Below, piece after piece: positions 23,562 to 62,896 of a stretch of DNA of 64,000 nucleotides; position 1 is the first letter of the stretch; every line of letters begins with the position of its first letter. Origin of the DNA: a virus; the IMG/VR virus record IMGVR_UViG_3300027747_000004, positions 32,001-96,000 of that record; one strand, given 5' to 3'. Made by a program: the position numbers and the translations under genes. The notes beneath the pieces were generated by a model. The model saw only the letters and a program-made list of their open reading frames with translations, had not been told where the DNA came from and did no database searches.

Positions 23562-26189
23562 ATGTCCCAACTCGTCGTCTACACAGGCCCCAGCAGCCAA
23601 ACCGATAATCAACTGCGCACACAGACTTCACAGCGTTCGGCTGCATATGACCCTGTGGACAAGTTGCGCACATCCAATCCTCAAGCATTGATTGACACCG
23701 ACTTTGAGTATGGCACCCAGCCAACCAAATGGGAATCAATCGGTCTTCAAAACAATCGTCAAAGCTGCTACTACATTGCGCAGTCCCCACTGACAATCAC
23801 GGGCATCACGGGCGCAAACACCTTGAATGGCGGATTCACGTTAGCAGGCACTTTCAGCTTGACCGCAGGCGACATCATCTACATTCAAAACTCCCTGAAC
23901 ACGGATTGCAATGGTTGGATGTATGTCACCACCACCTCAACAACCAGCGTCAATGTTCAAACAGCAGTAGGTACCACAATCCCTGCAACCAACTTCTACA
24001 ACAGTGCAGGAACTTACGTCTACAAAGGCTACTTTTACTCGTCATGTGGGTTTAACCTGACAGGCACCAGCGCGGTAACTAATGTTGGTACAACGATCAC
24101 GGTAACCACGACAAGCGCGCATGGTTTGAATGCAAACAGCTTGATCTACGTGGTTGGCTTGGGCGGTGGTACACCAGCCCCAAATGGCGCGTATATTGTT
24201 GCTACTGTACCTACAGCAAATACGTTCACCTACATAGTCGCATCAGCGCCTACAGTTGCCATCACCAACACAGCAGGCGCAACCAACATATACGCACGAC
24301 CTGCTGGTTATGTTGAAACTCGATCTTTTGACGGTGGCGTTGCATTCTCTGCTGGCTCTGCTGTTCCAAACCAACAGTTGATCCGCCAAACTCGTCGCTA
24401 CTTCCGTTACCAATCGGGAAAGGGCATCCAGTTTTCTACAGGTTCCTCGTTGAAGCCTTACTTGTTCAACCCATCGTTGAGTGCAAGCGGAACATCTATC
24501 GGCGCAACCATTACGGTCACCACGCAGTTTCCTCATAACCTAACTGCAAACACAGTTGTGACGGTTGCAGGCGTGGATCAAACGGGTTACAACGGCACAT
24601 ACACAATTCTTTCTACGGGCTTGACTGCAACTGCATTTACTTACACTGCAACAACCGCCCCTTCCTCTACAACAGCAACTGGATTGAACATCAAGGTCAG
24701 CCCGTTTAGTTGGTATGGATCAGGCAATCGCATTGGCTTCTTTGATCAACAAAACGGAATGTTTTTTGAGTTTGACGGCCAAGTACTGTATGCAGTGTTA
24801 CGTAGTTCTACAACCCAAATTAATGGCAGGTCAACTGTAACTACGGGTTCTGGAACCATTACAGGAACAGGAACGCAGTTTAGCACGCAACTGAAACCCG
24901 GCGACTATATTGTTATACGCGGTCAGTCGTACAAGGTGATCACAATCACCAGCGACACCTCCATGCAAGTCTCCCCAGAGTACCGAGGTGGCACGATCAG
25001 CCAGGGCGGTGTAATTATTTCTAAGACAATTGATACACGTACGCCACAGTCGCAGTGGTTTGACGTATGTGATGGCACAAGCAGTATCAATAACCCTTCG
25101 GGCTATCTGCTTGATTTGACGCGCATGCAAATGTGGTATATCGATTACTCATGGTATGGCGCTGGCTATGTTCGTTTTGGATTTCGCGGTAAAGACGGTG
25201 CGGTGACCTATGTGCATCAGATCCAAAACAACAACATCAAGTACGAAGCCTACATGCGTTCTGGCAACATGGCAGCGCACTACGAGTCCAACAACCAGTC
25301 GCTGGTGACCTACATTACTGCGTCTGCAGGAACAAGCGATACCACATTGAACGTGGCAAGTACCACAGCATTTGCGCCTACTGGTACTTTAAAAGTGCAA
25401 GCAAGCGGTACGTCTGGTGTAATTGAGTACATGACCTACACAGGCAAGACGGACACCACGTTTACCGGGTTGACTCGTGCAACCACTGGTGGCGCTGCTA
25501 CCGCGCAGTCATTTACTTACTCTGCTACCGCCCCGGTTGCAGTTGAATACGCATCACCTGACACTGCTGCGGCTCTGTCTCACTGGGGTTCTTCGGTCAT
25601 CATGGATGGGCAGTTCAATGATGACAAGTCGCTGATCTTTAACTACGGAACCACGGCGCAGCTTGCTGTTCCTGCGGGGGCAACCGTCCCTATTATTGCG
25701 ATTCGTATTGCACCATCTGTGGACAACGGACAGGTTGGCCTGCTTGGTGTTAAAGAAATTGTCAACCGTATGCAACTGCAATTGGTTGAGTTGGGTATTG
25801 TTTCTGCTGGTACGTTTCTAATTAACTTGGTTTTGAATGGATACTGCACTAGCTTTAGCGGGTCATGGAGTTCACCTACAGTCTCCAATGGGTACACCTC
25901 TTCATTAGCGCAAGTAGCGGTTAACACAACTACTACAGCGTCAATTAGCGGCGGTGAATCAGTTGCTGCAGCGTTCACCAATTCAAGCGGGCAAACTACA
26001 CTAGATTTAAGTGGAGTTCGGGATTTGGGTAACTCTATCCTTGGGGGCGGTACTACCTCTTCGGTTCCAACCGGACAATCGGGGCAGTACCCAGATGGGC
26101 CTGATATTTTGTATGTAGCTGCTACTAATACGGCAGGATCAGCTACAAATATTTTGGCTCGTTTGAGCTGGAAAGAAGCGCAGGCCTAA
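23562..26189 (+). CDS. Large beta-rich virion structural/adhesion protein
   Basis: LIDTDFEYG, RQTRRYFRYQSGKG, IDYSWYGAG; repeated TITVTT..H.L beta domains. Confidence 0.7.
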   Translation: MSQLVVYTGPSSQTDNQLRTQTSQRSAAYDPVDKLRTSNPQALIDTDFEYGTQPTKWESIGLQNNRQSCYYIAQSPLTITGITGANTLNGGFTLAGTFSLTAGDIIYIQNSLNTDCNGWMYVTTTSTTSVNVQTAVGTTIPATNFYNSAGTYVYKGYFYSSCGFNLTGTSAVTNVGTTITVTTTSAHGLNANSLIYVVGLGGGTPAPNGAYIVATVPTANTFTYIVASAPTVAITNTAGATNIYARPAGYVETRSFDGGVAFSAGSAVPNQQLIRQTRRYFRYQSGKGIQFSTGSSLKPYLFNPSLSASGTSIGATITVTTQFPHNLTANTVVTVAGVDQTGYNGTYTILSTGLTATAFTYTATTAPSSTTATGLNIKVSPFSWYGSGNRIGFFDQQNGMFFEFDGQVLYAVLRSSTTQINGRSTVTTGSGTITGTGTQFSTQLKPGDYIVIRGQSYKVITITSDTSMQVSPEYRGGTISQGGVIISKTIDTRTPQSQWFDVCDGTSSINNPSGYLLDLTRMQMWYIDYSWYGAGYVRFGFRGKDGAVTYVHQIQNNNIKYEAYMRSGNMAAHYESNNQSLVTYITASAGTSDTTLNVASTTAFAPTGTLKVQASGTSGVIEYMTYTGKTDTTFTGLTRATTGGAATAQSFTYSATAPVAVEYASPDTAAALSHWGSSVIMDGQFNDDKSLIFNYGTTAQLAVPAGATVPIIAIRIAPSVDNGQVGLLGVKEIVNRMQLQLVELGIVSAGTFLINLVLNGYCTSFSGSWSSPTVSNGYTSSLAQVAVNTTTTASISGGESVAAAFTNSSGQTTLDLSGVRDLGNSILGGGTTSSVPTGQSGQYPDGPDILYVAATNTAGSATNILARLSWKEAQA

Positions 26190-44645: not shown

Positions 44646-45848
44646 ATGGCAACCACGCCTGTTAAATCTAGTGTAGACTCATTAAGTGGGTTTGACCCAA
44701 GTTTGACTGTGCCATTTGGCGCAACTGCACCAGCATCTTCACCTGCTGCAGCCACATATGAAGACTTTGCTGCTTCTAACCCTGGTGCCACTGAAGAGCA
44801 ATACACTGATGCAATGCGAAGGCGTGCAGCAGCGCCTGTTGCAGCAGAAGCTGACATTGACCCCTTGGCGCCATACGTGCGACGTGGGCCAGCACCTGCA
44901 GCTCAAAAAGCTAATGAGGGACTTGGCATAAGTGAGATTGGCGCAACTCTTGGTGGCGCAGCCATTGGCTCACGTGTGCCTAACTACGTTAACCCAGATC
45001 TGACTGCTGCCAAAGTTGACTTAACTCGTAATGCAGCGTATGAGCAGTCATTGGTTAAGCCTTTGCAGGCTACACTTGATCAAGCGCACATGGCGCATCA
45101 AGCTGCACAAACTACACTTTCTGACGCTGCTATGACGCGTGATGCTGCGCATGCTGCTGCGCAAGCTGTTGGGCTTAATCCTGCTGACATTCCAATTGAA
45201 GATCTTGCCGGTGATAAATGGAACAAAAAAGTAGTAGGTTCAATGGGCCCAGGCGGCGATAGCGTTACAGAAGCTGCACGTAACTACAATGTTGAAAAAG
45301 GCTTGCCTGCAGATTACAAAGCCACTCGCAGCGGATTGGCAGTGCCTCGAAGCTATGAAGAGCCTGCGCATATTGCAAATGCGCGTCAGGCAGTTGTTGA
45401 CGCTGGGCTGGCTCATAAAACTGCGCAAGCAGAAGCAGCAGCAGCGCAACTTGCTTTAGAGCAGGCAAAAGCTGCAAGAAACGCGCCGTCCATAGCACGA
45501 GCAACTGCAGCAACGCAAGGGGCACAAGCAACGCTTGATGAGTTATCCAAGGCAAAAACTTTCTTGGCTAAGATTCCGGGCTTTAACACAATCATGGGCG
45601 GTTTGTCAGCAGGTGAGCTAGTGCATGCCTACAATGAGTTTCAGGCAGGCAATACTCTTGAAGGTGTAATGGCGGGTCTTAGTGGCGCAGGCGGCTTGGT
45701 TGGGCTAATACCACATCCGGCAGCTAAGGCCGCAGGCGCTATTATGTCTTTGCCGCCTCTTGCGTACCAAGGCTACCAAGCTTACAAAGAGCATAAGACA
45801 AAGAACCCCGACCTAGGCAATTTTGCACCCGGCCGCGGTGACTATTAA
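44646..45848 (+). CDS. Putative ejection protein
   Basis: Ala-rich, Gly-rich hydrophobic C-terminus; last late gene. Confidence 0.6.
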   Translation: MATTPVKSSVDSLSGFDPSLTVPFGATAPASSPAAATYEDFAASNPGATEEQYTDAMRRRAAAPVAAEADIDPLAPYVRRGPAPAAQKANEGLGISEIGATLGGAAIGSRVPNYVNPDLTAAKVDLTRNAAYEQSLVKPLQATLDQAHMAHQAAQTTLSDAAMTRDAAHAAAQAVGLNPADIPIEDLAGDKWNKKVVGSMGPGGDSVTEAARNYNVEKGLPADYKATRSGLAVPRSYEEPAHIANARQAVVDAGLAHKTAQAEAAAAQLALEQAKAARNAPSIARATAATQGAQATLDELSKAKTFLAKIPGFNTIMGGLSAGELVHAYNEFQAGNTLEGVMAGLSGAGGLVGLIPHPAAKAAGAIMSLPPLAYQGYQAYKEHKTKNPDLGNFAPGRGDY

Positions 45849-46537
45849 AGCTCTTTGCCTTTAGTGTAAAACCACATACGCACTGAGCTCATTCCACCAT
45901 CAATCAATACGTGGTTAGGAAATGCTTGGTACTTGTGGTACAGTGGATGGTTGATGAAGTTTTTCATCAGCAGGTACGCATCAGCATCCGGTGGTGACAT
46001 ACCCATGGCACGGTCAGTGTCAATGCACTTAACGTCAAAGTCATCCGCAAACTCTCGTTGCATTGCATGGGCTTGGTCATTTAGCAAGCCAATGATGACT
46101 ACACGCTTTTTCTTAATGCCTGTTGCAGCATACTCACCACAGTGTTTGCGCACCCCAAAGTCATGCTCAAGCTCTTTAACTGCTATTGCAATTTCTTGCT
46201 TTAGTGCACCGGCAATTTTCTTTGCTATGGCCTGAACGAGGTCATCAAGAGTGGGGTCCCAGGATGTACTGGTGGGCACTGGCGCCACTTCATTAGCAAC
46301 TGTGGGTGGTTCTATTGCTTTTTGCTTTGGCACATCCAGCGCTATGCGAACCTTCAATTCTTTGATGAGCTCATATGCAGCTGGATATGCATTGAACGGG
46401 CGCTGCCGCGACTCAGGCAGCTTTTTTTGCGCTGCTTTGATTGCGTCAAAATACCCGTAACTGTGGTCTGTAACGTAGCGATGCGCAACAGTAAGCACCG
46501 TGTCAATTTCAGCTTTTGTCCAGAAAATTTTAGCCAT
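45845..46537 (-). CDS. Hypothetical protein, C-terminal DUF2325-like alpha/beta domain
   Basis: RVVIIG..DAYLLMKNFINH..GGMSSV; own TATAAT at 46592-46597. Confidence 0.6.
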   Translation of the reverse strand: MAKIFWTKAEIDTVLTVAHRYVTDHSYGYFDAIKAAQKKLPESRQRPFNAYPAAYELIKELKVRIALDVPKQKAIEPPTVANEVAPVPTSTSWDPTLDDLVQAIAKKIAGALKQEIAIAVKELEHDFGVRKHCGEYAATGIKKKRVVIIGLLNDQAHAMQREFADDFDVKCIDTDRAMGMSPPDADAYLLMKNFINHPLYHKYQAFPNHVLIDGGMSSVRMWFYTKGKEL

Positions 46538-46603: not shown

Positions 46604-46789
46604 TCAGGGTGCAAAGTCTGCTTCAGCTGCAACTTTTTGCCAATTTTCCACATTTACCAACTCAATCTTCAATGCCATCAAGGCTTCAATGATCTCTGGC
46701 AATGTGTAATGCTGCCGCAGCATGGCCTCAATGTACTTGCGTAGCACACGTTCTGCGGGATGCCGTAAGGCTAAATGTTGAGTAGCCAT
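46604..46789 (-). CDS. Hypothetical protein
   Basis: Overlaps 3' end of TS homologue. Confidence 0.5.
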   Translation of the reverse strand: MATQHLALRHPAERVLRKYIEAMLRQHYTLPEIIEALMALKIELVNVENWQKVAAEADFAP

Positions 46790-47556
46790 TTTGAGAACTC
46801 GTACTTGGGGTTGATGACAGAGTTGCTAAGCTCCAAAGCTTCGTCTTTTGTGATGCGAGGTGGAGGGTCTGAGATGGATAGATATGTGGAGCTACCCACA
46901 ATTTCTTTGAACATTTCCATACGACGCACATAAACGTGGAAAGAACCTACGGTAACCGTAAGATTGCCCATGTTTACGCCAAGAATGGCAGCAATGATCT
47001 CTTGCAAAAATGAGAACGTGGGCAGGTCATTGGCCATGCCCCATAGGATGTCTTGGCTGCGCATAATTGCACGAGCATTCAATTGACCATTGCGAATGCG
47101 AAACTCAATGGCAAGTGTGCAAGGCACATCTTTTGCGTCAATGTCCATGTGGTCAACGTCAGTGCCATACATTGGAATGACAGCACGGCGGCTGGTAGGG
47201 TCAGCCGTCAGCAACTTTACAATGTTGCGTACGCCATGGCGGCCAAACCAGTATGAGCCATAGTTGCTATTGAGCTTGCCGTTGGCAATGATTTTGCCCC
47301 ACTGCGCTGCGTGATCTGCAATGGTCAGGTCATATGGATTGGCCTTGATGTACCAAGCCATTTCACGCTTAAGATACGGGATGTTGAGCGCACGGCCTTT
47401 AAATGCATTGAACCTGACGTACGGCCCAACTGTGTACGAGAAGTTTTCAATCTCCAGTGTTGTTTCGCCACGAGGCGTGGCCCATTCGCCGTATTCACGC
47501 AGTACGTGGTACAGATTGATGAGGTCTGCTTCTTTATTGATAATCGCTAAGTCCAT
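46771..47556 (-). CDS. Thymidylate synthase homologue, dCMP-modifying type (hydroxymethylase-like)
   Basis: NSNYG, SRRAV, DVPCT (catalytic Cys), MRSQDILWGMAND, SFHVY; Asp at the position of E. coli ThyA Asn177. Confidence 0.85.
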   Translation of the reverse strand: MDLAIINKEADLINLYHVLREYGEWATPRGETTLEIENFSYTVGPYVRFNAFKGRALNIPYLKREMAWYIKANPYDLTIADHAAQWGKIIANGKLNSNYGSYWFGRHGVRNIVKLLTADPTSRRAVIPMYGTDVDHMDIDAKDVPCTLAIEFRIRNGQLNARAIMRSQDILWGMANDLPTFSFLQEIIAAILGVNMGNLTVTVGSFHVYVRRMEMFKEIVGSSTYLSISDPPPRITKDEALELSNSVINPKYEFSKWLLNI

Positions 47557-48481
47557 TGTTGCCTTCTGTGATGTGGTATGGTTGATCTGGATAGTTTTGG
47601 AGATGATACAACGGTGGTGGAAGCTTGATGGCTTTCACGTTGTTGTTTAGTGCCCATGCGTAGGCATTGTTACCTAGCGCAAAGATCTTTCGCGGCGTAA
47701 GTTGCTGAATGAAACTTGCATCAGATGGCGCACCAGCAGCGTTTTGCGTATTTGCCCAGTACAAACAGCTTTCAGGTACGCCCTCATCTTCAAGAACTGT
47801 TGCCAACATTCTGCTGGGGCCATCGTTGTCAAGAAAGTTGATAAAAGGTACTACCACAGCTGATGACTTAACATTCATCTGAGGGCCTTTGTCGCACAGC
47901 ATAAGGTAGTTGTCTTGCTTAAACGAACCGCCACCTGTGCTTTTGTTTGTGATGCTTGCGTATTTGATTTTGGCAAACAAGTCTTCAACATCATCATTGA
48001 CATAGTCGTAGTGTACAACTGTTAGATGCGTTTGCAATGCCAGTGCGTCATACGCAGCGTACACTTGACGCAATTGCGTAGTGTTGTCAAGATACTCCTC
48101 ACCAAGCCGCGCAGAAAATGCCTGCTCACAAACCTCATAGGCAGGTTGGCACAATACCACTACTGCACCACGTGCAAGTGCAATACGCTCAAGCATGCGG
48201 CGACGCGGCATGTCAACACGTGAGTTGCCACCGCGGTACGCATCAGCGTAGATGGGCTCAGACAACCATGACCTATCCATGATGAGAGTGTCATCAAAAG
48301 TCAAGGCAGGCGACATCGCACGAAAGTACAACTTGCACAGTTGCTCAGACGTTAAGCCTGAGTAAGGGCCATGCTTAACCATGTGCACCATGCTTGCGGT
48401 ACTTTTGCTGATGATGACGCGCAGCTTTTCAGCAAGTGTTGACTTGCCTGCGCCGTCTGGGCCTTCTAAAATGATGATCAT
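47534..48481 (-). CDS. dNMP (thymidylate-kinase-like) kinase fused to UDG-superfamily-like domain
   Basis: IILEGPDGAGKST, DRSWLSE.IY; C-terminal ..PF..S..L..YWAN..IFALGNNA..LPPP. Confidence 0.75.
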   Translation of the reverse strand: MIIILEGPDGAGKSTLAEKLRVIISKSTASMVHMVKHGPYSGLTSEQLCKLYFRAMSPALTFDDTLIMDRSWLSEPIYADAYRGGNSRVDMPRRRMLERIALARGAVVVLCQPAYEVCEQAFSARLGEEYLDNTTQLRQVYAAYDALALQTHLTVVHYDYVNDDVEDLFAKIKYASITNKSTGGGSFKQDNYLMLCDKGPQMNVKSSAVVVPFINFLDNDGPSRMLATVLEDEGVPESCLYWANTQNAAGAPSDASFIQQLTPRKIFALGNNAYAWALNNNVKAIKLPPPLYHLQNYPDQPYHITEGNNGLSDYQ

Positions 48482-49365
48482 AAAAAAGATTGTAGAGTTT
48501 TAATAGTTGTAAGTCGCGGTGTTACCAGCACTTCTTGTTTTTGACCCTTTATGACCCTACGTAGATCATTGGTGTCCATGGACTCAAGCTCATGCAGTTT
48601 AAAGCCATATGATGGCCCAACAGCTGCAAGCTCAATAGGGTCGCCGCCAAGTACGCAACCTGCATACGCTGCATGTAAATAGCGTACACGCCACCAACCA
48701 CATCCAGCGTGCTCATATGTGGGGCACAACACGCCTTTGTAAAAGCCATATTCCCAAACAATATCACTTTCAAGTTTGCGTGGCTGGCCCAAATGCTTGC
48801 CACCAACAGAGTACACAGGCCAACTAAGACGTTGCGCACTTGCCCACAGGTGTGCGCCGGTTGACAATGACGCGTTGTACCACATTTGCTTACGTTGGCC
48901 CCATGACAGCTGATGCGTAGGTGGGCATACGTATAAGGGTGATGGGTCCCATGGCAAAATACATTCGACAGGTAAACCCATTTTGTCTTTGTTGCCCCAA
49001 GGGAACAATGGTGCAATCCATACGCGTGACTGAAGCTTTTCAACATCAATTACATTTGCCCATGTGGGCAGAATCTCTTGGAAAGACCAATCGTCGAGGC
49101 AGATGTATGCATTGGGTTTTTGTTCCAACGCATACACTGCCCCGGCGTGGTCAATCGCGTTGTGGTCCAATGGGTAAACATACACAAACACGGCGTCAAA
49201 CCCAGAAAGATCTTCGCCAACAGTCACCGCACGGTGCGCCACATTGTGGCCCATCAAACGATACGCCATTGTCATGATCTCTGGAATAGAGACGAACTTC
49301 GTAGAGCTTGCCCTATCAGGATGATTGATGTGCGTCTCTGTGACGCCAGTGATGAGTATGTTCAT
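48478..49365 (-). CDS. Putative DNA glycosyltransferase (base hypermodification)
   Basis: MNILITG..GHNV..R.V..GEDL..FD, LDDW, P.Y.HAG.GWWR.R; operonic with TS homologue and kinase. Confidence 0.6.
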   Translation of the reverse strand: MNILITGVTETHINHPDRASSTKFVSIPEIMTMAYRLMGHNVAHRAVTVGEDLSGFDAVFVYVYPLDHNAIDHAGAVYALEQKPNAYICLDDWSFQEILPTWANVIDVEKLQSRVWIAPLFPWGNKDKMGLPVECILPWDPSPLYVCPPTHQLSWGQRKQMWYNASLSTGAHLWASAQRLSWPVYSVGGKHLGQPRKLESDIVWEYGFYKGVLCPTYEHAGCGWWRVRYLHAAYAGCVLGGDPIELAAVGPSYGFKLHELESMDTNDLRRVIKGQKQEVLVTPRLTTIKTLQSFL

Positions 49366-49646
49366 TATGCAGCTTCGGCTTCTTCTTCAGCTTCGTCTTC
49401 GTACACAGCATCTTCAAGAGTGATGTCGCCACGTCCAGCATCATAGTGCACGTCACTGGAACGACCACCTGCAGCAAGGTAGTCTGCAATGGTCATGCCA
49501 TCTTCGTACAATGCAAAACGCGCATGTGCAAGGGAGCCTTCACGCTTTGGATTGACTTCCACATTAATGCGGATGACAGTGTTTTTGTCAATGTTGGGGC
49601 CACGTTCTTTGCGGGTTTTTTCGACGACTTCTTTGGTATCGGTCAT
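49365..49646 (-). CDS. Small protein with NPKR.GS..RF..Y..GMT domain and acidic tail
   Basis: First gene of modification operon; TAATG coupling to next gene. Confidence 0.7.
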   Translation of the reverse strand: MTDTKEVVEKTRKERGPNIDKNTVIRINVEVNPKREGSLAHARFALYEDGMTIADYLAAGGRSSDVHYDAGRGDITLEDAVYEDEAEEEAEAA

Positions 49647-49707
49647 ATAGATCTTTCTAAAAAGGATGAAAACTAACAGTGAATAACGTCAATGGTCAGT
49701 ACTTGCA

Positions 49708-51081
49708 TTATACATTACGATGAATGTAATCACGTACAGCAGTCAACAATTTTTGTTGCGTTTTGTCTTTGCGCCTCACAGCAAGCATAATTGCCTCATC
49801 TACAGTGTCATTTGCAATGATGTGATGCACCATGATGTTGTTTTTCTGGCCCTGGCGCCACAATCTACGAATGAATTGCTCATAGATCTCCAATGACCAA
49901 GTCAATGAGTACCAGATGACTGCATGCCCGCTATCTTGTAAGTTGAGGCCATGACCCGCCGACATAGGGTGCGCAAGCAAGACTGGTATTTCGCCGGCAT
50001 TCCAGTTCGTAGTAATAGAATCAAGCTTAGTGCCAACGACGCCTGAACCAATAACAGGCGCATTTGGGAATGCCTTCCTGAGTCTTTCCAGGTCGTGCTG
50101 AAAATGGTACCCAATGATGCAAGGCTGTCCTGATAATTCTTCCACAAGGTCCATAACCGCTTCAGTCTTTGCGTTGTGTACATGCGTTGTTACTCTTTCA
50201 TTGCCATCAAGATATGAGCCGCCATTGGCAATTTGTTGGCCCTTCATAACTGCAACAGCTGCGTTGACTGCTGTCACCGTGCCTTGTTCAAGCTCAATGG
50301 TCAAAGCTTTTTCAAAAGCATCGTACATTTTACGTGCAGCAGGTGGAAGTTCGACTCTGACATCGTTGTAGGCCAAGCTAGGTAAGTCAAGGTGATCAAG
50401 AGCTGCCATCCGCAGCACTTTATTGTTAAGCTTTTTCTGGATTCTTGCTTCGCCATCTGGTTGTAACTTCCACTCATAGCCATTGAAGCCAGAAGGGTAA
50501 AAATACTCTTCCCTAAACCTTGACACATAGGGCCCAAACGTGGCCCCCTGGTCAATAATCAACTGCGGTCCAAATATGTCTAATAGACTATTGGGCGCAG
50601 GTGAACCAGTGAGGCCCCAGCGTCGGTCGAACCGATCTAACAAAGGCTTCAAAGTTTTAAAGCGCTGCGTTTGCGTGTTCTTCATGAATGAGATCTCGTC
50701 AACGGTAAGAATCTCAAAGGGCCATGCTTGTCCACGCAATTTGCTTGATAGCCAGCCAAGGCCTTCAAAGTTGATGACGTAAATGTCGTGGTTGGCAGCC
50801 AAGGTTTTTTCTTTTTTGGCGCCATGCAAAACGCCAACTGAGTACCCTTCAAACTGCTCCCACTTTTTCACCTCATTAGGCCATACAGTGTACGTTGGCC
50901 GCAATGGCGCAATCACAAGCATTTTCCTAGCCATGCTTGACAGACGCAGCGTACGAAACGCGCTTAGCACAATGGCAGTTTTGCCTAGCCCTGGGTCTAA
51001 CCATAGTTGGCCAGACCCATGCTCAACCAGAAACTTTACGGCTTCTTTTTGGTATTCATGAGGTTCCCAAAACACGGTCAA
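49708..51081 (-). CDS. SNF2-family (SF2) helicase
   Basis: PHEYQ, LDPGLGKT, VDEIS, GLTGSP, AGHGLNLQ, Q..RRLWRQGQ. Confidence 0.92.
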   Translation of the reverse strand: MTVFWEPHEYQKEAVKFLVEHGSGQLWLDPGLGKTAIVLSAFRTLRLSSMARKMLVIAPLRPTYTVWPNEVKKWEQFEGYSVGVLHGAKKEKTLAANHDIYVINFEGLGWLSSKLRGQAWPFEILTVDEISFMKNTQTQRFKTLKPLLDRFDRRWGLTGSPAPNSLLDIFGPQLIIDQGATFGPYVSRFREEYFYPSGFNGYEWKLQPDGEARIQKKLNNKVLRMAALDHLDLPSLAYNDVRVELPPAARKMYDAFEKALTIELEQGTVTAVNAAVAVMKGQQIANGGSYLDGNERVTTHVHNAKTEAVMDLVEELSGQPCIIGYHFQHDLERLRKAFPNAPVIGSGVVGTKLDSITTNWNAGEIPVLLAHPMSAGHGLNLQDSGHAVIWYSLTWSLEIYEQFIRRLWRQGQKNNIMVHHIIANDTVDEAIMLAVRRKDKTQQKLLTAVRDYIHRNV

Positions 51082-51343
51082 TCCCTTCTTTTGAGTCGAT
51101 CACATACACCTTGTGGCCTCGGCTTGCAAGTTGGTCATGAACTTTTTGTTGCAATGGTGATACCACACCTCCGGGACGCTTAAGTTCAACCCATAGCACT
51201 TCACCATTTTCAAGAGGTACCACACGATCAGGCCAGCCGCGTTGAAAATGCACACTTAGCTTTAACGTTAAAAGACCATGCTTTTTACATTGCTTGCTAA
51301 AGTATGCCTCAAGGTCTCGTTCCAGCAGTACACGTGTCACCAT
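51056..51343 (-). CDS. VRR-NUC domain nuclease
   Basis: LERDLE, GWPDR, WVELKRPGG..SPLQ. Confidence 0.88.
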   Translation of the reverse strand: MVTRVLLERDLEAYFSKQCKKHGLLTLKLSVHFQRGWPDRVVPLENGEVLWVELKRPGGVVSPLQQKVHDQLASRGHKVYVIDSKEGIDRVLGTS

Positions 51344-51978
51344 TTGCAAGGCCCGCCATTGTCTTTACGAAAGTGGCAGTACCTGCAATTTGCGTTAGGC
51401 TTTGGCGCAAAGATCTTGTCGTTTTCGATCTTTAACATGCGGTTTGTCATCCATGTTTTCATCAAACCAAAGTTGTCACGCGTTACAGTTGCGCATGTTA
51501 CAGGCTTTTGCAGGTCAATGAATGCTAGCTCAAGCTCAATAGTGTCAACTTCAGGGTACAGCGCAAAGACTAGCGTGGCATAAAGCCGCAGCTGCTCTTC
51601 GTAATCACGAAGTTTGCCTGTCTTCCAATCAATGATGCGAGCTTCGTTGCCTTTGATTGCCAACAAGTCGATCTGGCCCCGTAGCCATACATCGCTATCT
51701 TTAAAGCCGCATGATGACCAGTCGCGCCGCACGCCTACGTCATGCTCAGGCAAGACAACGTTATAGAAGCTTTTGATGTCTTCAATGAAGTCAAGCCAAG
51801 GCTCAAGCTCGGCAGTAACCAATGGAAACCCATCAAAAGCTTCTTCAAACTCTTTGTGGATACGTTTACCACGCTCTGCAGCAGGGCCAGTGGGCTCTTG
51901 CAAATGATCAATACGCGTAAGCTTGTACTTGTAGGGGCAGCCTTCATACGTTGAAATGCTGGAGTGTGAATAGCTCAT
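51337..51978 (-). CDS. PD-(D/E)XK exonuclease (Cas4/RecB-like)
   Basis: SHS....Y..CP, G..IH, GQID, IIDWKTG, QL..YA, C.YC.F..C. Confidence 0.88.
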   Translation of the reverse strand: MSYSHSSISTYEGCPYKYKLTRIDHLQEPTGPAAERGKRIHKEFEEAFDGFPLVTAELEPWLDFIEDIKSFYNVVLPEHDVGVRRDWSSCGFKDSDVWLRGQIDLLAIKGNEARIIDWKTGKLRDYEEQLRLYATLVFALYPEVDTIELELAFIDLQKPVTCATVTRDNFGLMKTWMTNRMLKIENDKIFAPKPNANCRYCHFRKDNGGPCKW

Positions 51979-54574: not shown

Positions 54575-54943
54575 CTAGTTTTTACGATACACGGACAGTT
54601 CAAAAGACTTTGATGCCAAAGTCCCAGGTATTGTCTCACCGGCTTCCCATCGTTCACGGAAAATCGCTGAAGACAATCTTTTGTGCAGCAGCTCAAATTG
54701 CTTTGTTTCTGCTACGTATTCATAGAAGGTAGGCCAATCAACAATTGTAGGATTAGACACCTCTTTCATTGTGCATGATGCCTTGTCAGAGCCGGCCTTA
54801 GAAATGCCTTGCGCTGCCATTTGCTCCATGATGTCTGCTTCAAGAGCAGACAGCTTTTTTGTGAGCTCTTTTGCCTCTGCAGTTAGCTCTTCACGTTTGC
54901 CTTTGACAGTGACAAACTCATCGATTAAGTCTTTAATGTTCAT
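54575..54943 (-). CDS. Hypothetical replication-region protein
   Basis: Coiled coil plus DW..FY.Y..LL.KR..GE.IPG. Confidence 0.7.
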   Translation of the reverse strand: MNIKDLIDEFVTVKGKREELTAEAKELTKKLSALEADIMEQMAAQGISKAGSDKASCTMKEVSNPTIVDWPTFYEYVAETKQFELLHKRLSSAIFRERWEAGETIPGTLASKSFELSVYRKN

Positions 54944-55328
54944 GTTTGTAGCTTTGCAATATGATTGCAATGTCGCCTTGCGGCGCAATCCAGCCTATAG
55001 GCTTTACAATGTCAAAGTGGTTACCACGCAAACTGCGAATATAGTCATTAGCAGGTTCTTTGCGCATGTTGGCTGCATGCACCAAAGCAAAGATCGCGTC
55101 AAAGGGTAGTCCCATGGCATGAGCGCAGCCAAGCACAACGTATGTCAAATCAGCCAGTGCGTCAGCAGCCTCAGGCAAATCGCCATCCTCACATGCCTTC
55201 ATGTACTCACTAAGCTCTTCAAGGATGAACCTTGAAAAGTAGGAGCTTTCACTAGGGTCAAGTAGTTGCGGCTTATCGCCAATAGGCAATTGCATTGCCT
55301 TACGGAACTCAAGGACTTTGTCGTACAT
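54933..55328 (-). CDS. MazG-like (PRA-PH/DR2231-type) dNTP pyrophosphohydrolase
   Basis: V.EF, LEELSE, ADALADL.YV..G, VH.ANM.K, KP.GW. Confidence 0.85.
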   Translation of the reverse strand: MYDKVLEFRKAMQLPIGDKPQLLDPSESSYFSRFILEELSEYMKACEDGDLPEAADALADLTYVVLGCAHAMGLPFDAIFALVHAANMRKEPANDYIRSLRGNHFDIVKPIGWIAPQGDIAIILQSYKHEH

Positions 55329-55967: not shown

Positions 55968-56927
55968 TTATGCCAAGGCCAACAGGTCTTGTACTGCTTG
56001 TTGCTTGATGGATACACCACCACCAAACCATGCATTGGCCAGTCGAGCATCGCCTGTGCGTGCTGTTTCCCAGTCCATCAGTTGAGTGACTGCATTCAAT
56101 GCACCCCATGCAGTACCTTTGGCAGATTCAAGATCTGCACCGATGCCTGCGCCGTCAAACAATGCCAGAGCACGTTGTGCTGCACGGCTTGGCTTTTTGT
56201 CATCACCACCAAGTAGCTTGGTAAAGATGCTTTGCGCTTGCATGCTGCCGAGCTTGATGCCTGCCAATGCTTTGGCAGTTTGCTCGAACGTTTTGAATGC
56301 TTCGTTGAAGTTGGCCAGCTCGGTTTTGACAGCGGTGGGATTGAACACCGAGTTGTGACGCACACTAACTTCTGCCTTGCCTTTTTGCGCCAGTTGCAAT
56401 GTGTTGTTGCAAACAACGCGGACCGAAGTCAACCGAGCTTGCGTTGCCAAGGAACCATCGGCGGACGAGGCCAGAAGCAGGTACTGGTTGACTTTATCAC
56501 CAGCAAGGTTGAATTCACCATCCATCCGTGCCAGTGCCCAGTAGTGTGCGCCATTGCGCAGGACGCCAGCTGTTTCAAGGTGGGCAATAGAGCCAACCAT
56601 GTCACGGAAGAACTCAAGCACTTCCATGGGCTGCACAATTTTGTATTGGCTAGACACCAAGCCCAAAGGCATTTCGTTGTCAGTGCGGTACATGACTTTT
56701 TTGCCATTGAACTTTGTGTGCTGAGGCTTAAAGCCATTCCACACAGATGCAGGTGGCGCAAACTGAACATCTGCAGTAGCCAATTGGAAGTCAAGACCAG
56801 ATTCTTCAGCCCAGGTTTCAATGGTGGAGTCAGCAGTAAGTCGTTGACCCAAACCGTGCCAAGGGGTGTCACCTACGTAAGCCATTGCAGCTTTGCCGGT
56901 GAGAGTAGTTGCGAGCATGTGTGCCAT
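55968..56927 (-). CDS. DUF932 family (TIGR03299-like) protein
   Basis: PWHGLG, LG.VS..Y..VQ, ETAG.L..G, VRVVCNNTL, GTAWG..NAVT. Confidence 0.88.
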   Translation of the reverse strand: MAHMLATTLTGKAAMAYVGDTPWHGLGQRLTADSTIETWAEESGLDFQLATADVQFAPPASVWNGFKPQHTKFNGKKVMYRTDNEMPLGLVSSQYKIVQPMEVLEFFRDMVGSIAHLETAGVLRNGAHYWALARMDGEFNLAGDKVNQYLLLASSADGSLATQARLTSVRVVCNNTLQLAQKGKAEVSVRHNSVFNPTAVKTELANFNEAFKTFEQTAKALAGIKLGSMQAQSIFTKLLGGDDKKPSRAAQRALALFDGAGIGADLESAKGTAWGALNAVTQLMDWETARTGDARLANAWFGGGVSIKQQAVQDLLALA

Positions 56928-57642: not shown

Positions 57643-57809
57643 GTGTTTTCCTGTGCCTCTCGGCCTTTTCTATACGCTTCTGCCAATGCCGCTGACATTC
57701 GCATTGACGCCTTGGCGATTTGCAGCATGACTTTCCTGACCGCCCGATTAAACGCTGTGCGCTCACGCCACAACTTTAATCTGCGCTTGTTTTTTTGTCG
57801 TACTTTCAT
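57639..57809 (-). CDS. Small basic hypothetical protein
   Basis: ATGA coupling on both sides. Confidence 0.55.
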   Translation of the reverse strand: MKVRQKNKRRLKLWRERTAFNRAVRKVMLQIAKASMRMSAALAEAYRKGREAQENT

Positions 57810-58045
57810 GTGTTTTTCTCTGCTCGTTCGTTCCATGCGGCAATGGCGCGTTTGTTAGCGTCTGCAAAAGCCTGATCGCGCGTCTGCCCTTCAAGGATAG
57901 AGTGCCGCACATCAGGCGCTTGTGCACCGCAGGAGTTGCAGATAGCCACTCTCCATCGGTAGGTATCGCCTTCTACTACGGTCACCCCTCGATCACCGCA
58001 GAATGGGCATGGCTTGGCATCGGGTACAAAGTATTGTTCGTTCAT
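57806..58045 (-). CDS. Lar-family restriction alleviation-like Zn finger
   Basis: KPCPFCG..C.SCGA..AIAAWNER. Confidence 0.75.
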   Translation of the reverse strand: MNEQYFVPDAKPCPFCGDRGVTVVEGDTYRWRVAICNSCGAQAPDVRHSILEGQTRDQAFADANKRAIAAWNERAEKNT

Positions 58046-58251
58046 GTGTTCCCCCTTGCTCGGATTGCTTGATAGGCTTGGTATGCATAGAAATGCTCTT
58101 TGCACAACTTCATACAAGCCTCACGCTCATCGGCGCGGATGAGGTCAATAAGTCTTGACTCATATGCTTCTCTCCAATAAGGCTCACCTTTGAAGTTGTA
58201 GTCAGCATACGCTTCAGCTTGCTTTGCAAGTTCAATGTCTCGTTTGTTCAT
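58042..58251 (-). CDS. Hypothetical protein
   Basis: DEREAC..AIRARG pattern. Confidence 0.65.
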   Translation of the reverse strand: MNKRDIELAKQAEAYADYNFKGEPYWREAYESRLIDLIRADEREACMKLCKEHFYAYQAYQAIRARGNT

Positions 58252-60766: not shown

Positions 60767-62896
60767 ATGGACTCACAAATTGTGCCGACCGGATTCGGCG
60801 CAAGTATAGTAACTCCGCAGCAATTATACACCAACTATCTACAAGATCGCGGGTTTGACGCAACAGATGTTGCGCAACTTGGGCTTGAACTACTTGATAG
60901 AGATCAAACAAAGGCTTTGCTAGGCCACACCGGTGAGTGGAGCATACGCATACCGTACCGCGACGTTGATGGCAAGGACACCGGCTTTGATCGTGTAAGG
61001 CTTTTGCAGCCGCGGGGCAAGATGAAGTACTCACAGGCCCGTGCCAGTGGCAGCCATATCTACTTCCCAGTCAAAACTAATTGGCGCCAAGTCATCACCA
61101 ATGTAGACATCCCCATCATCATCACCGAGGGTGAATTCAAAGCATGGGCCATCACCAAGGTCCTAGCTGCAGACACACTGCCTTACGCGTGTATTGGCTT
61201 GGCGGGTGTGACCAGTTGGACAGACAAGCAGGGTATGCACCTTCACAAAGATCTCATGCAGATCATGTGGCGCAAAAAGACCAGCTTTGACGCCAAAAGC
61301 CGCCAAGTCTACATCATCTTCGACTATGACGGCGCTAAACCTGATGGCGAGCCCAATGAGCAGGTTGCACTAGCAGAGACTAAACTTGCAATCACGCTGC
61401 GTGGGCTTGGCGCTGAGGTCCACCTTTGCCGTGTAGGGCGCTTTGGCTACGGTGAAGGCAAGAAATACGCAATTGACGATCACCTGCAGGCCGGCAAGAC
61501 GCTTACTGAGGTGCTCACCGCGACCAGCATCGTAATGAATGGCGTGGATACACTAGATGTGAAGCTTCATGAGTTCTCTACAAGGTATGCCATGCTCAAT
61601 GGCGATGTGATTCGGTTGAGCGATGGCCACATCCTGAACTTCAACAAGGCGCGCATTGACTCAGCGCAGCACATCTTTGTGCAGACAAACACCGTGCAAG
61701 GCAGAGCCGGACAGCCACCTAAGGTTGTCAGCCGTGAAATACCCCTCATTGAGGAGTACAAGAAGTGGCCCAAGAGGTGCGATATTAAAAAGGTGGGTAT
61801 CTACCCACAGTACCAGGGACTTAGGGTCACTCCAGATGGCTGTTACAACTATCTAAACTCGTGGTCGCACTTTCCAACCTCAGGCGATGTGACTTTATAC
61901 GAAGAATTCTGCAAATACTTCTTCAGAGATGAGATTGAGTTCATGGAGTACTGGCATGATTGGGTTGCAAACATCGTGCAATACCCGCATCGCCGTAACA
62001 ACACCACTCCGCAATTCGTATCAAACAGTGAAGGCATCGGTAAGTCAGCAGTTGCTGAATTTATAGCTGAGATGCTAGGCCTTGGTGATGGGGCACCTGC
62101 AATCATCGTTGGGCCTGATGAGTTGTTTGGCTCATTCAATGGGCTTTTACGAAACAAGATCTTCGTTGTGGTAAATGAACCATCATCCGACCGTGATGAC
62201 CATAGCGCAAAGCTAAAGAACTTCATCACAAGCAAGGAGATCACCATCAACAACAAGTATGGGGCGCAATACTCCATAGAGAATTACATTAACTTTGTCT
62301 TCACAACCAATCGCCCTTACGTTACAACGATGGGTAACAGCGCAAGGCGTGAAGCTATTTACAAACCAGAGACTTTGACCAACACGGAGACGCAACCATT
62401 GGTTGTAGCTTTGATGAAATGGGCACGTGCAGGCGGCTTTGGCGCCGTGCTGAATTGGTACTACAACCGCGACATCTCAAGCTTTGACCCATTCAAGGCA
62501 GCCCCAAGCACTAAGCGCAAGGCACAGGTTGTCAAGCTTTCGCAATCGGTGACTCAGCAATTCGCCAATGACTTGATCGACTGGACCAAGACTCACATCA
62601 ACGGGCTGGCATTCTTTACAAATCAGCAATTGCAAATACTGTTTAGAGCTTGGCAGGGTGATGAAAGGATGCCATCAGCCAAGTACGTCAAGGCTGCATT
62701 GTCAGGCATTTCACCTGGTGATGAGGCAGTCGTGTTTATGAAAAAAGATGATAGCGACGCGGCCAAAAATATTACTGTGCGAGGCTGGTTCATTGGTAAT
62801 ACTGAGGCATGGGAGATTTGTAATAAACGCTTGGTAGCAAAAACAACAGCTGACGCAGTCGCAAAAGAGGTCCAAAATATTACAGAATCCTTCTAA
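60767..62896 (+). CDS. Toprim (DUF3854-like) primase fused to SF3/D5-like helicase (primase B)
   Basis: IIITEGEFKA, IGLAGV, IIFDYD, IDD; EGIGKS, VVNE, FTTN. Confidence 0.85.
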   Translation: MDSQIVPTGFGASIVTPQQLYTNYLQDRGFDATDVAQLGLELLDRDQTKALLGHTGEWSIRIPYRDVDGKDTGFDRVRLLQPRGKMKYSQARASGSHIYFPVKTNWRQVITNVDIPIIITEGEFKAWAITKVLAADTLPYACIGLAGVTSWTDKQGMHLHKDLMQIMWRKKTSFDAKSRQVYIIFDYDGAKPDGEPNEQVALAETKLAITLRGLGAEVHLCRVGRFGYGEGKKYAIDDHLQAGKTLTEVLTATSIVMNGVDTLDVKLHEFSTRYAMLNGDVIRLSDGHILNFNKARIDSAQHIFVQTNTVQGRAGQPPKVVSREIPLIEEYKKWPKRCDIKKVGIYPQYQGLRVTPDGCYNYLNSWSHFPTSGDVTLYEEFCKYFFRDEIEFMEYWHDWVANIVQYPHRRNNTTPQFVSNSEGIGKSAVAEFIAEMLGLGDGAPAIIVGPDELFGSFNGLLRNKIFVVVNEPSSDRDDHSAKLKNFITSKEITINNKYGAQYSIENYINFVFTTNRPYVTTMGNSARREAIYKPETLTNTETQPLVVALMKWARAGGFGAVLNWYYNRDISSFDPFKAAPSTKRKAQVVKLSQSVTQQFANDLIDWTKTHINGLAFFTNQQLQILFRAWQGDERMPSAKYVKAALSGISPGDEAVVFMKKDDSDAAKNITVRGWFIGNTEAWEICNKRLVAKTTADAVAKEVQNITESF

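Follow-up and report, generated by a model that had tools for sequence, protein, structure and literature searches.

A probable T4-style pathway for cytosine hydroxymethylation and DNA glycosylation in an uncultured ~55-kb phage

We describe a four-gene operon in a 64,000-nt stretch of viral DNA (the window), which spans bases 32001-96000 of the 110,994-bp IMG/VR record IMGVR_UViG_3300027747_000004. Judged from its sequences and predicted structures, the operon rather probably encodes a T4-style pathway for cytosine replacement and glycosylation in an uncultured ~55-kb phage with a family-A DNA polymerase (PolA). Bacteriophage T4 produces glucosylated 5-hydroxymethylcytosine (5hmC) by means of a dCMP hydroxymethylase (gp42), a dNMP kinase (gp1), a dCTPase (gp56) and alpha- and beta-glucosyltransferases. 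The best reading of the operon follows this logic, with pre-replicative synthesis of 5-hydroxymethyl-dCTP (5hm-dCTP) and then post-replicative glycosylation of the DNA. From the folds, active-site signatures and conserved linkage described below, we infer the enzymatic steps, the sugar and its acceptor as follows. A thymidylate synthase (TS)-fold enzyme would convert dCMP to 5-hydroxymethyl-dCMP (5hm-dCMP) with methylene-tetrahydrofolate; the kinase domain of a protein fused to a uracil-DNA glycosylase (UDG)-like domain would phosphorylate 5hm-dCMP to the diphosphate, which a host NDP kinase would take to 5hm-dCTP; a MazG-like enzyme encoded upstream would probably deplete dCTP; and PolA would incorporate 5hmC into DNA. 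Finally, a GT-B enzyme would glycosylate the hydroxymethyl group within the DNA polymer, with a host nucleotide-sugar (most simply UDP-glucose) as donor, and the glycosylated genome would be shielded from restriction and other DNA-targeting defences. An earlier sequence-only reading of the window had proposed that C is replaced by a modified, sugar-decorated base; the evidence from sequence is consistent with that proposal and supports it, short of proof.

The operon encodes a 93-aa protein (P0004, 49365-49646) named here NPKR after its conserved motif, a 295-aa GT-B transferase predicted to be a 5hmC DNA glycosyltransferase (P0003, 48478-49365), a 315-aa fusion of a kinase domain (residues 1 to ~175) with a UDG-like domain (residues ~180-305) (P0002, 47534-48481) and a 261-aa TS-fold enzyme predicted to be a dCMP hydroxymethylase (P0001, 46771-47556). 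All four genes lie on the minus strand, within a block of ~59.7-45.8 kb that is co-directional throughout, and consecutive reading frames overlap by 1 nt (NPKR/transferase), 4 nt (transferase/kinase) and 23 nt (kinase/TS), so that the sequence-only reading was correct in calling them coupled. Its four gene identities also stood: the TS homologue was recognized by Pfam family PF00303 and its active-site residues, the fusion by profile, Pfam and Atlas evidence, the transferase by its fold and the NPKR protein by an invariant N32-P33-K34. The promoter of its own that it suggested for the operon is possible. The -10-like element TGTATAAT, a possible internal promoter at 49714-49707 on the minus strand, is present and overlaps the stop codon of the SNF2 helicase gene, and a TAnAAT element, mostly TGATACAAT, occupies the equivalent place in 56 of 61 distinct relatives; the nearest -35-like sequence, TTGACT, lies 28 nt upstream, no properly spaced -35 was found for TGTATAAT and a consensus promoter scan did not call the site. 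In the relatives the TAnAAT element falls inside the coding end of SNF2, which makes a dedicated promoter plausible though unproven. Immediately after the -10-like element, a GTTGAyCATTGAAAGGAA stretch is conserved in most relatives, perhaps as a regulatory signal or a ribosome-binding site; the window sequence (49646-49707) has partly diverged from it, and in many relatives an extra small open reading frame (ORF) follows the stretch, ahead of the NPKR gene.

Relatives of the transferase occur at no fewer than 516 IMG/VR loci, and gene order was read in the best 80 of these, where the flanks reach. The order was the same in all 80: MazG ... PolA - PD-(D/E)XK - SNF2 - NPKR - transferase - kinase::UDG - TS, with the NPKR gene present in 77 and missing from 3. 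Recurrence of the SNF2-NPKR-transferase-kinase-TS arrangement in 80 of 80 loci is far beyond chance, and the invariant order makes the operon a core component of the replication module in a large uncultured clade.

The TS homologue matches PF00303 above the gathering score (E 2.6e-19), whereas none of the NCBIfam thymidylate-synthase equivalogs comes near its cut-off (61 vs 174.55 bits in one case). Its best solved relatives in phmmer searches are the CMP hydroxymethylase MilA (2e-19) and the T4 dCMP hydroxymethylase gp42 (3.6e-13), which outrank every true thymidylate synthase; identity with gp42 is 27% (E 4e-16). Asp143, Cys146, Asp169 and Asp177 (E. coli ThyA numbering) are found in the window enzyme and in 69 of 69 clade members, with Cys146 and Asp177 aligned to Cys148 and Asp179 of the T4 enzyme. 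According to the residue rules put forward for this superfamily (PMC13326640), N177D confers dCMP specificity, L143D/E accompanies a hydroxymethyl product in place of a methyl one and D169N marks flavin-dependent 5-hydroxy-dCMP synthases. Our alignment reproduces the distinction between Asn169 of RB69 gp48 and Asp169 of T4 gp42, and it places the window enzyme with T4. The cytosine specificity assumed in the sequence-only reading agrees with Asp at the positions of ThyA Asn177, Leu143 and Asp169, invariant across the clade. On this residue signature, together with its closest solved relatives, the TS homologue is predicted to be a 5hm-dCMP synthase, and not a thymidylate synthase, a dCMP methylase or a 5-hydroxy-dCMP synthase.

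The fusion protein is predicted with confidence as a two-domain structure (predicted local distance difference test, pLDDT, 91; predicted template modelling score, pTM, 0.90). Its N-terminal domain has the P-loop NMP-kinase fold and the DRxxxS motif of the thymidylate kinase/YorR-like (d)NMP kinases. The family profile matches YorR at 6.5e-10 across 170 positions, hhalign pairs the domain with RB69 gp45 at 96% probability over 88 residues, and an alignment of 31 family members shows no variation in the P-loop or in a DRSWLSEP nucleotide-binding motif. The UDG-like region covers the C-terminal ~130 residues, for which the family profile (~153-284) matches type-4 UDGs and UdgX at 6.6e-5 to 8e-4, the 6.6e-5 match being the UDG TM0511. 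Ten of the 31 fusion relatives reach PF03167 (best E 2e-8), which is also the single, weak Pfam match of the domain queried alone, and in the Atlas UDG clusters were found by both features and structure, with a TM score of 0.69 to an all-UDG cluster. Fold searches with the whole fusion model returned kinase matches only, because the kinase domain fills the match lists; the UDG-like assignment therefore draws on the profile, Pfam and Atlas evidence.

At the positions of the UDG motifs A (GE/D-x-P) and B (HP-S/Q/A), distant relatives of the fusion carry LLVGDRPN and HPQ, whereas the window protein and its 11 closest relatives carry CDKGP and PPP, so that the catalytic histidine of motif B is lost in the window clade. 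Nor does the UDG-like domain hold an invariant or near-invariant Cys, as a four-cysteine 4Fe-4S site would, in the 31-sequence alignment. With the motif-B histidine lost and no conserved Fe-S cysteines, glycosylase activity is unlikely in the window clade, and the domain probably serves a non-glycosylase role such as binding or docking. A precedent is provided by family-A phage polymerases with fused UDG domains, inactive in N4-like phages and active in SPO1- and SP-15-like ones (PMC13697223). In these, as in the window phage, a family-4-type UDG fold, in dead and active versions, accompanies the replication machinery of phages with modified pyrimidines, which suggests a replisome-linked binding role; unlike them, the window phage joins the domain to a nucleotide kinase instead of a polymerase.

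For the transferase, Pfam, PHROG and NCBIfam give nothing beyond PHROG 14998, a family without an assigned function that matches its N-terminal part. The predicted model (pLDDT 90) has a GT-B fold, with two Rossmann domains superposable on T4 beta-glucosyltransferase (BGT). BGT is its top match in Foldseek (8.7e-6) and likewise in VIA, and T4 alpha-glucosyltransferase (AGT) is also among the top structural matches. Motifs DDW and GG..GQ.R / HAGxGWWRxR are invariant in the family. Full-length homologues occur in the T4-like Aeromonas phage phiAS4 and the Actinomycetia phage DSL-LC01 (hhalign 99.6-99.8%), and both genomes encode TS homologues with Asp143, Asp169 and Asp177; in DSL-LC01 the transferase gene adjoins genes for UDP-galactopyranose mutase and MazG. 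Recurrence in three unrelated lineages is the best support, of an indirect kind, that the transferase family may act on 5hmC DNA. The sugar-adding step envisaged in the sequence-only reading is supported by three features: a confident GT-B model like the T4 DNA glucosyltransferases, coupling to the kinase gene and co-occurrence with a hydroxymethylase-type TS in two unrelated lineages. GT-B enzymes resembling T4 BGT have been reported from IMG/VR as often ThyS-associated (~28% of GT-B contigs), within pre-replicative hypermodification (bioRxiv 10.1101/2023.12.21.572611); the enzymes tested in that work differ from the present one in coming from methyltransferase/TET (5mYOX) clusters. In phiAS4, ORF0025-0027 are three consecutive hypothetical genes of ~350 aa by motA, of which ORF0026 is the full-length transferase homologue. 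These three may be the hitherto unidentified hmC glycosyltransferases of T4-like Aeromonas phages.

Approximately 5 kb upstream of the operon lies a gene, not mentioned in the earlier reading, for a 131-aa MazG/PRA-PH-type NTP pyrophosphohydrolase (54933-55328, minus strand; PF01503, E 1.7e-15), a candidate dCTPase. It is found in 37 of the 80 related loci, at a constant relative position upstream of PolA. With regard to the sugar donor, Pfam scans of the larger ORFs of the operon-bearing genome (genome B, below) revealed no gene for nucleotide-sugar synthesis, a second transferase, dCMP deaminase or ThyX; the earlier statement that nucleotide-sugar synthesis genes are absent holds across this set. 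The donor is presumably a host nucleotide-sugar, and the caveat that the earlier reading attached to it still applies.

The NPKR protein consists of a basic N-terminus, a domain of ~55 aa (NPKRxGSxAHxRFxLYxDGMTV...D...G.I.L) and an acidic tail. N32-P33-K34 is invariant across 24 family members, and Pfam, PHROG and NCBIfam hold no match to the protein. The domain is nevertheless widespread, with 1275 representative clusters at E<=1e-3, and it also occurs in tandem in proteins of 600-1000 aa that end in an ADP-ribosyltransferase domain, as well as once alongside PHD fingers. Its behaviour is that of a mobile module in polyvalent or ejected phage proteins. Among the relatives P0206, P0238, P0264 and P0215, two tandem copies lie near the N-terminus of proteins of 850-1025 aa that have a PF03496 end, and the domain is found once in a protein with PHD fingers.

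The phage itself had to be separated from a composite record. The parent entry is flagged as 100% complete with direct terminal repeats, and self-comparison resolves it into two related, colinear phage genomes of ~55 kb joined head to tail. Genome A (record 1-56387; ~58% GC) is without the operon, and genome B (record 56388-110867; ~54.5 kb, ~48% GC) bears it; the two are 86% identical at their starts and 94% at their ends, and the 127-bp 'terminal repeat' is the overlap of the end of B with the start of A. The 110,994-bp record is likely to be an assembly chimera of co-occurring relatives, and its A/B junction, at about window position 24388 (record 56388), accounts for the GC step in the window. 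Genome B encodes PolA (605 aa, with no UDG domain according to Pfam), a T4-type terminase and an SU10-type adaptor. A 'small PolA podovirus-like phage', as the sequence-only reading put it, is right in substance, and the adaptor fits a podovirus. Genome A encodes an SNF2 helicase 37% identical to that of genome B but lacks homologues of all four operon genes. A nucleotide search with the operon against 50,697 phage records gave no match and revealed no close cultured relative; the nearest cultured phages by PolA (~35-36% identity) are AXL3 and PW916. The two genomes also differ in 6-mer palindromes, of which only one, CGATCG (3 observed, 8 expected), is strongly depleted in genome B, as against eight in the operon-free genome A (observed/expected, for example, AAGCTT 0/12, CAGCTG 5/27 and ATCGAT 1/11). 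Fewer avoided 6-mers would fit relaxed restriction-site selection in a modified genome, although a comparison of two genomes is weak evidence.

When set beside T4, the window phage shares the pathway logic, the enzyme classes, the TS active-site signature, a kinase, a candidate dCTP-removing enzyme and a BGT-like GT-B fold. The linkage is likewise comparable, since b-gt directly adjoins gene 42 in T4. It differs in being an unrelated ~55-kb PolA phage, in having a TMPK/YorR-like kinase with a UDG-like domain in place of a gp1-like one and a MazG-type in place of a gp56-type pyrophosphohydrolase, in the lack of sequence similarity between its transferase and BGT or AGT, in the addition of the NPKR protein and in that no dCMP deaminase was found. 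A second comparison is with Stenotrophomonas phage AXL3, Pseudoxanthomonas phage PW916 and Manatee Spring phage (MW202621), whose PolA proteins are 35-36% identical to that of the window phage. They share a module ordered MazG - kinase::UDG - TS homologue - dCMP deaminase, in which MazG stands directly beside the kinase::UDG gene and a full-length relative of the fusion (31-35% identity) is encoded directly upstream of a D143/D169/D177 TS homologue. In contrast to the window phage, these three have no glycosyltransferase or NPKR gene, possess the dCMP deaminase (with a neighbouring methyltransferase gene in AXL3 and PW916), and their UDG-like domains retain the HPQ that the window clade has lost. 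Their TS residues predict a 5hmC-type base. AXL3 DNA withstood all 35 enzymes with G/C-containing sites; the only enzymes to cut it were two whose sites consist of A/T alone (PMC7504290). In AXL3 (module gp27-gp31), gp28 and gp29 are annotated as an ordinary thymidylate synthase and kinase.

Several results weigh against a T4-style pathway. The structural Z score of the transferase is 18.0 to T4 BGT and 17.2 to the selenosugar synthase SenB, a tie, and so the fold is no proof that DNA is the acceptor. Its family profile found nothing in the PDB even at E<=10, and hhalign gave 0.8% probability with T4 BGT and 0.1% with RB69 gp47, that is, no similarity to characterised DNA glycosyltransferases; the enzyme thus has a BGT-like fold and is not a member of GT63 (T4-Gluco-transf). 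The residue rules for TS product type are empirical and come from the enzymes tested in one paper (PMC13326640), the MazG-like enzyme is only a candidate dCTPase, and the T4 model leaves the UDG-like domain and the NPKR protein unaccounted for. Finally, the 4-mer palindromes CTAG, GGCC, CATG and CGCG are still under-represented in genome B (0.66-0.74).

The findings on the transferase lead to a first alternative, in which 5hmC DNA is made but the GT-B enzyme glycosylates a non-DNA acceptor (a small molecule, a protein or an envelope precursor), leaving the virion DNA with plain 5hmC or a non-sugar derivative. The GT-B fold is very common, no proven DNA glycosyltransferase is related to the transferase in sequence, and enzymes of the SenB, PimA and BshA types give structural scores near that of T4 BGT. 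Against a role of this kind stand the 4-nt overlap between the transferase and kinase genes, the position of the transferase gene amid replication and nucleotide genes in all 80 relatives, the recurrence of the family alongside a hydroxymethylase-type TS in two unrelated phage lineages and the first rank of T4 BGT in both Foldseek and VIA. We regard a non-DNA acceptor as unlikely.

The chemistry of the TS homologue could also differ from that in T4. Clusters in RB69, Acinetobacter phage DLP3 and Rhizobium phage RL38JI make glycosylated 5-hydroxycytosine (PMC13326640, published in 2026), and they contain the same adjacent trio of a TS homologue, a TMPK-like 'nucleotide kinase' and a first-sugar GT-B transferase, RB69 gp45 being homologous to the window kinase domain. 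The window enzyme might, in the same manner, yield 5-hydroxy-dCMP, the hydroxyl then being glycosylated through an ether link, or it might yield 5-methyl-dCMP, as in Xanthomonas phage Xp12. Asp177 fixes only dCMP as the substrate, and the residues tied to product type are correlations, their mechanism being unproven for the window clade. However, all tested 5-hydroxy-dCMP synthases carry Asn at position 169, including the D169N enzymes of RB69, DLP3 and RL38JI that form 5-hydroxy-dCMP via flavin, whereas the window TS has Asp169. Since residue 169 is Asp and not Asn in 69 of 69 sequences, the 5-hydroxycytosine pathway was rejected. Asp143 is likewise the residue of T4 gp42 and MilA and not the methyl-linked Leu, and a methyl group would give the linked transferase no acceptor. 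The three published clusters differ in other respects: they have their own genes for UDP-arabinose or galactofuranose, none of which were found in the window phage, their kinases are without a UDG-like domain, and the N-terminal half of RB69 arabinosyltransferase 1 is unrelated to the window transferase. A C5 product other than hydroxymethyl, of either type, is rather improbable in our estimation.

Readings in which the fusion protein is more than a nucleotide kinase fare less well. In one, which we would call speculative and quite doubtful, the degenerate UDG pocket recognises a pyrimidine, whether modified or not, within DNA or at the replication fork, the fusion either ties the kinase reaction to DNA, as a cytosine version of the 5-hmU DNA kinase route to new hypermodified bases, or docks 5hm-dCDP synthesis to the PolA replisome, and the sugar of the GWWR-type transferase forms part of an undescribed base. 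In another, the pocket flips 5hmC and the kinase phosphorylates the hydroxymethyl group into a leaving group, a cytosine counterpart of the 5-hydroxymethyluracil DNA kinase (5-HMUDK) route. Such a scheme has its attractions, as pairs of a kinase and a glycosylase-like protein drive thymidine hypermodification (PMC8989533), the fusion of a kinase to a base-flipping fold is otherwise unexplained, and the pTM of 0.90 suggests that both domains pack as one unit. Homology to the 5-HMUDK of PaMx11 (gp49), on the other hand, is confined to 33 P-loop columns in hhalign, with none beyond, whereas alignments extend over 170 residues with YorR and 88 with RB69 gp45, including the DRxxxSEP motif, and on these grounds a 5-HMUDK-type DNA kinase was rejected. 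The UDG motif-B histidine is lost in the window clade, the aGPT-Pplase partners in thymidine hypermodification have a helix-hairpin-helix and not a UDG fold (PMC8989533), with none encoded here, and a sugar transferase requires a free hydroxyl. The DNA-acting kinase is, by our judgement, very improbable. Finally, the automatic annotation of relatives as 'thymidylate synthase' and 'thymidylate kinase' would imply ordinary thymidylate metabolism that raises the dTTP supply, the neighbouring transferase being unrelated to it, yet this we rejected as barely credible, because Asp replaces the dUMP-specifying Asn177, NCBIfam scores fall far below cut-off and the closest solved enzymes are cytosine hydroxymethylases.

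Other features of the early/replication block, all on the minus strand unless noted, include a VRR-NUC nuclease (51056-51349) and, on the plus strand, a DUF3854/DUF5906 primase-helicase-like protein (60767-62896); a DUF932 protein is encoded at 55968-56927 (E 4e-52). A 103-aa ORF (57806-58117) matches the Lar restriction-alleviation family (PF14354, E 6e-11) and would represent a second anti-restriction function in the block. Downstream of the operon, a 61-aa ORF (46604-46789), which overlaps the TS stop by 19 nt, is kept in 27 of the 80 related loci, and the 230-aa ORF that follows it (45845-46537) in 46; both could belong to the module as well. Neither ORF has a match in Pfam, PHROGs or NCBIfam, and the same is true of most structural genes.

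Returning to the T4-style pathway, the strategy is that of textbook T4 and of the TS-kinase-transferase clusters published in 2026, and the present system is an extension of these, not a surprise. What is particular here is the combination of a hydroxymethyl-type synthase, an uncharacterised glycosyltransferase family, a kinase fused to a UDG-like domain that lacks the catalytic histidine, the NPKR protein and the abundance of the clade. The kinase::UDG-like fusion is widespread and unstudied, and its role could reveal how the synthesis of modified nucleotides is coupled to replication or repair. If the pathway is as proposed, these uncultured ~55-kb phages, a very common clade, carry glycosylated 5hmC in place of all their cytosine. 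Restriction, CRISPR and glycosylase defences would then act differently on these phages, and metagenomes may contain too few of their genomes or assemble them wrongly. The same genes would also supply new reagents, namely a DNA glycosyltransferase that is compact (295 aa) and from an uncharacterised family, together with a small pair of enzymes, a synthase and a kinase, for 5hm-dCMP.

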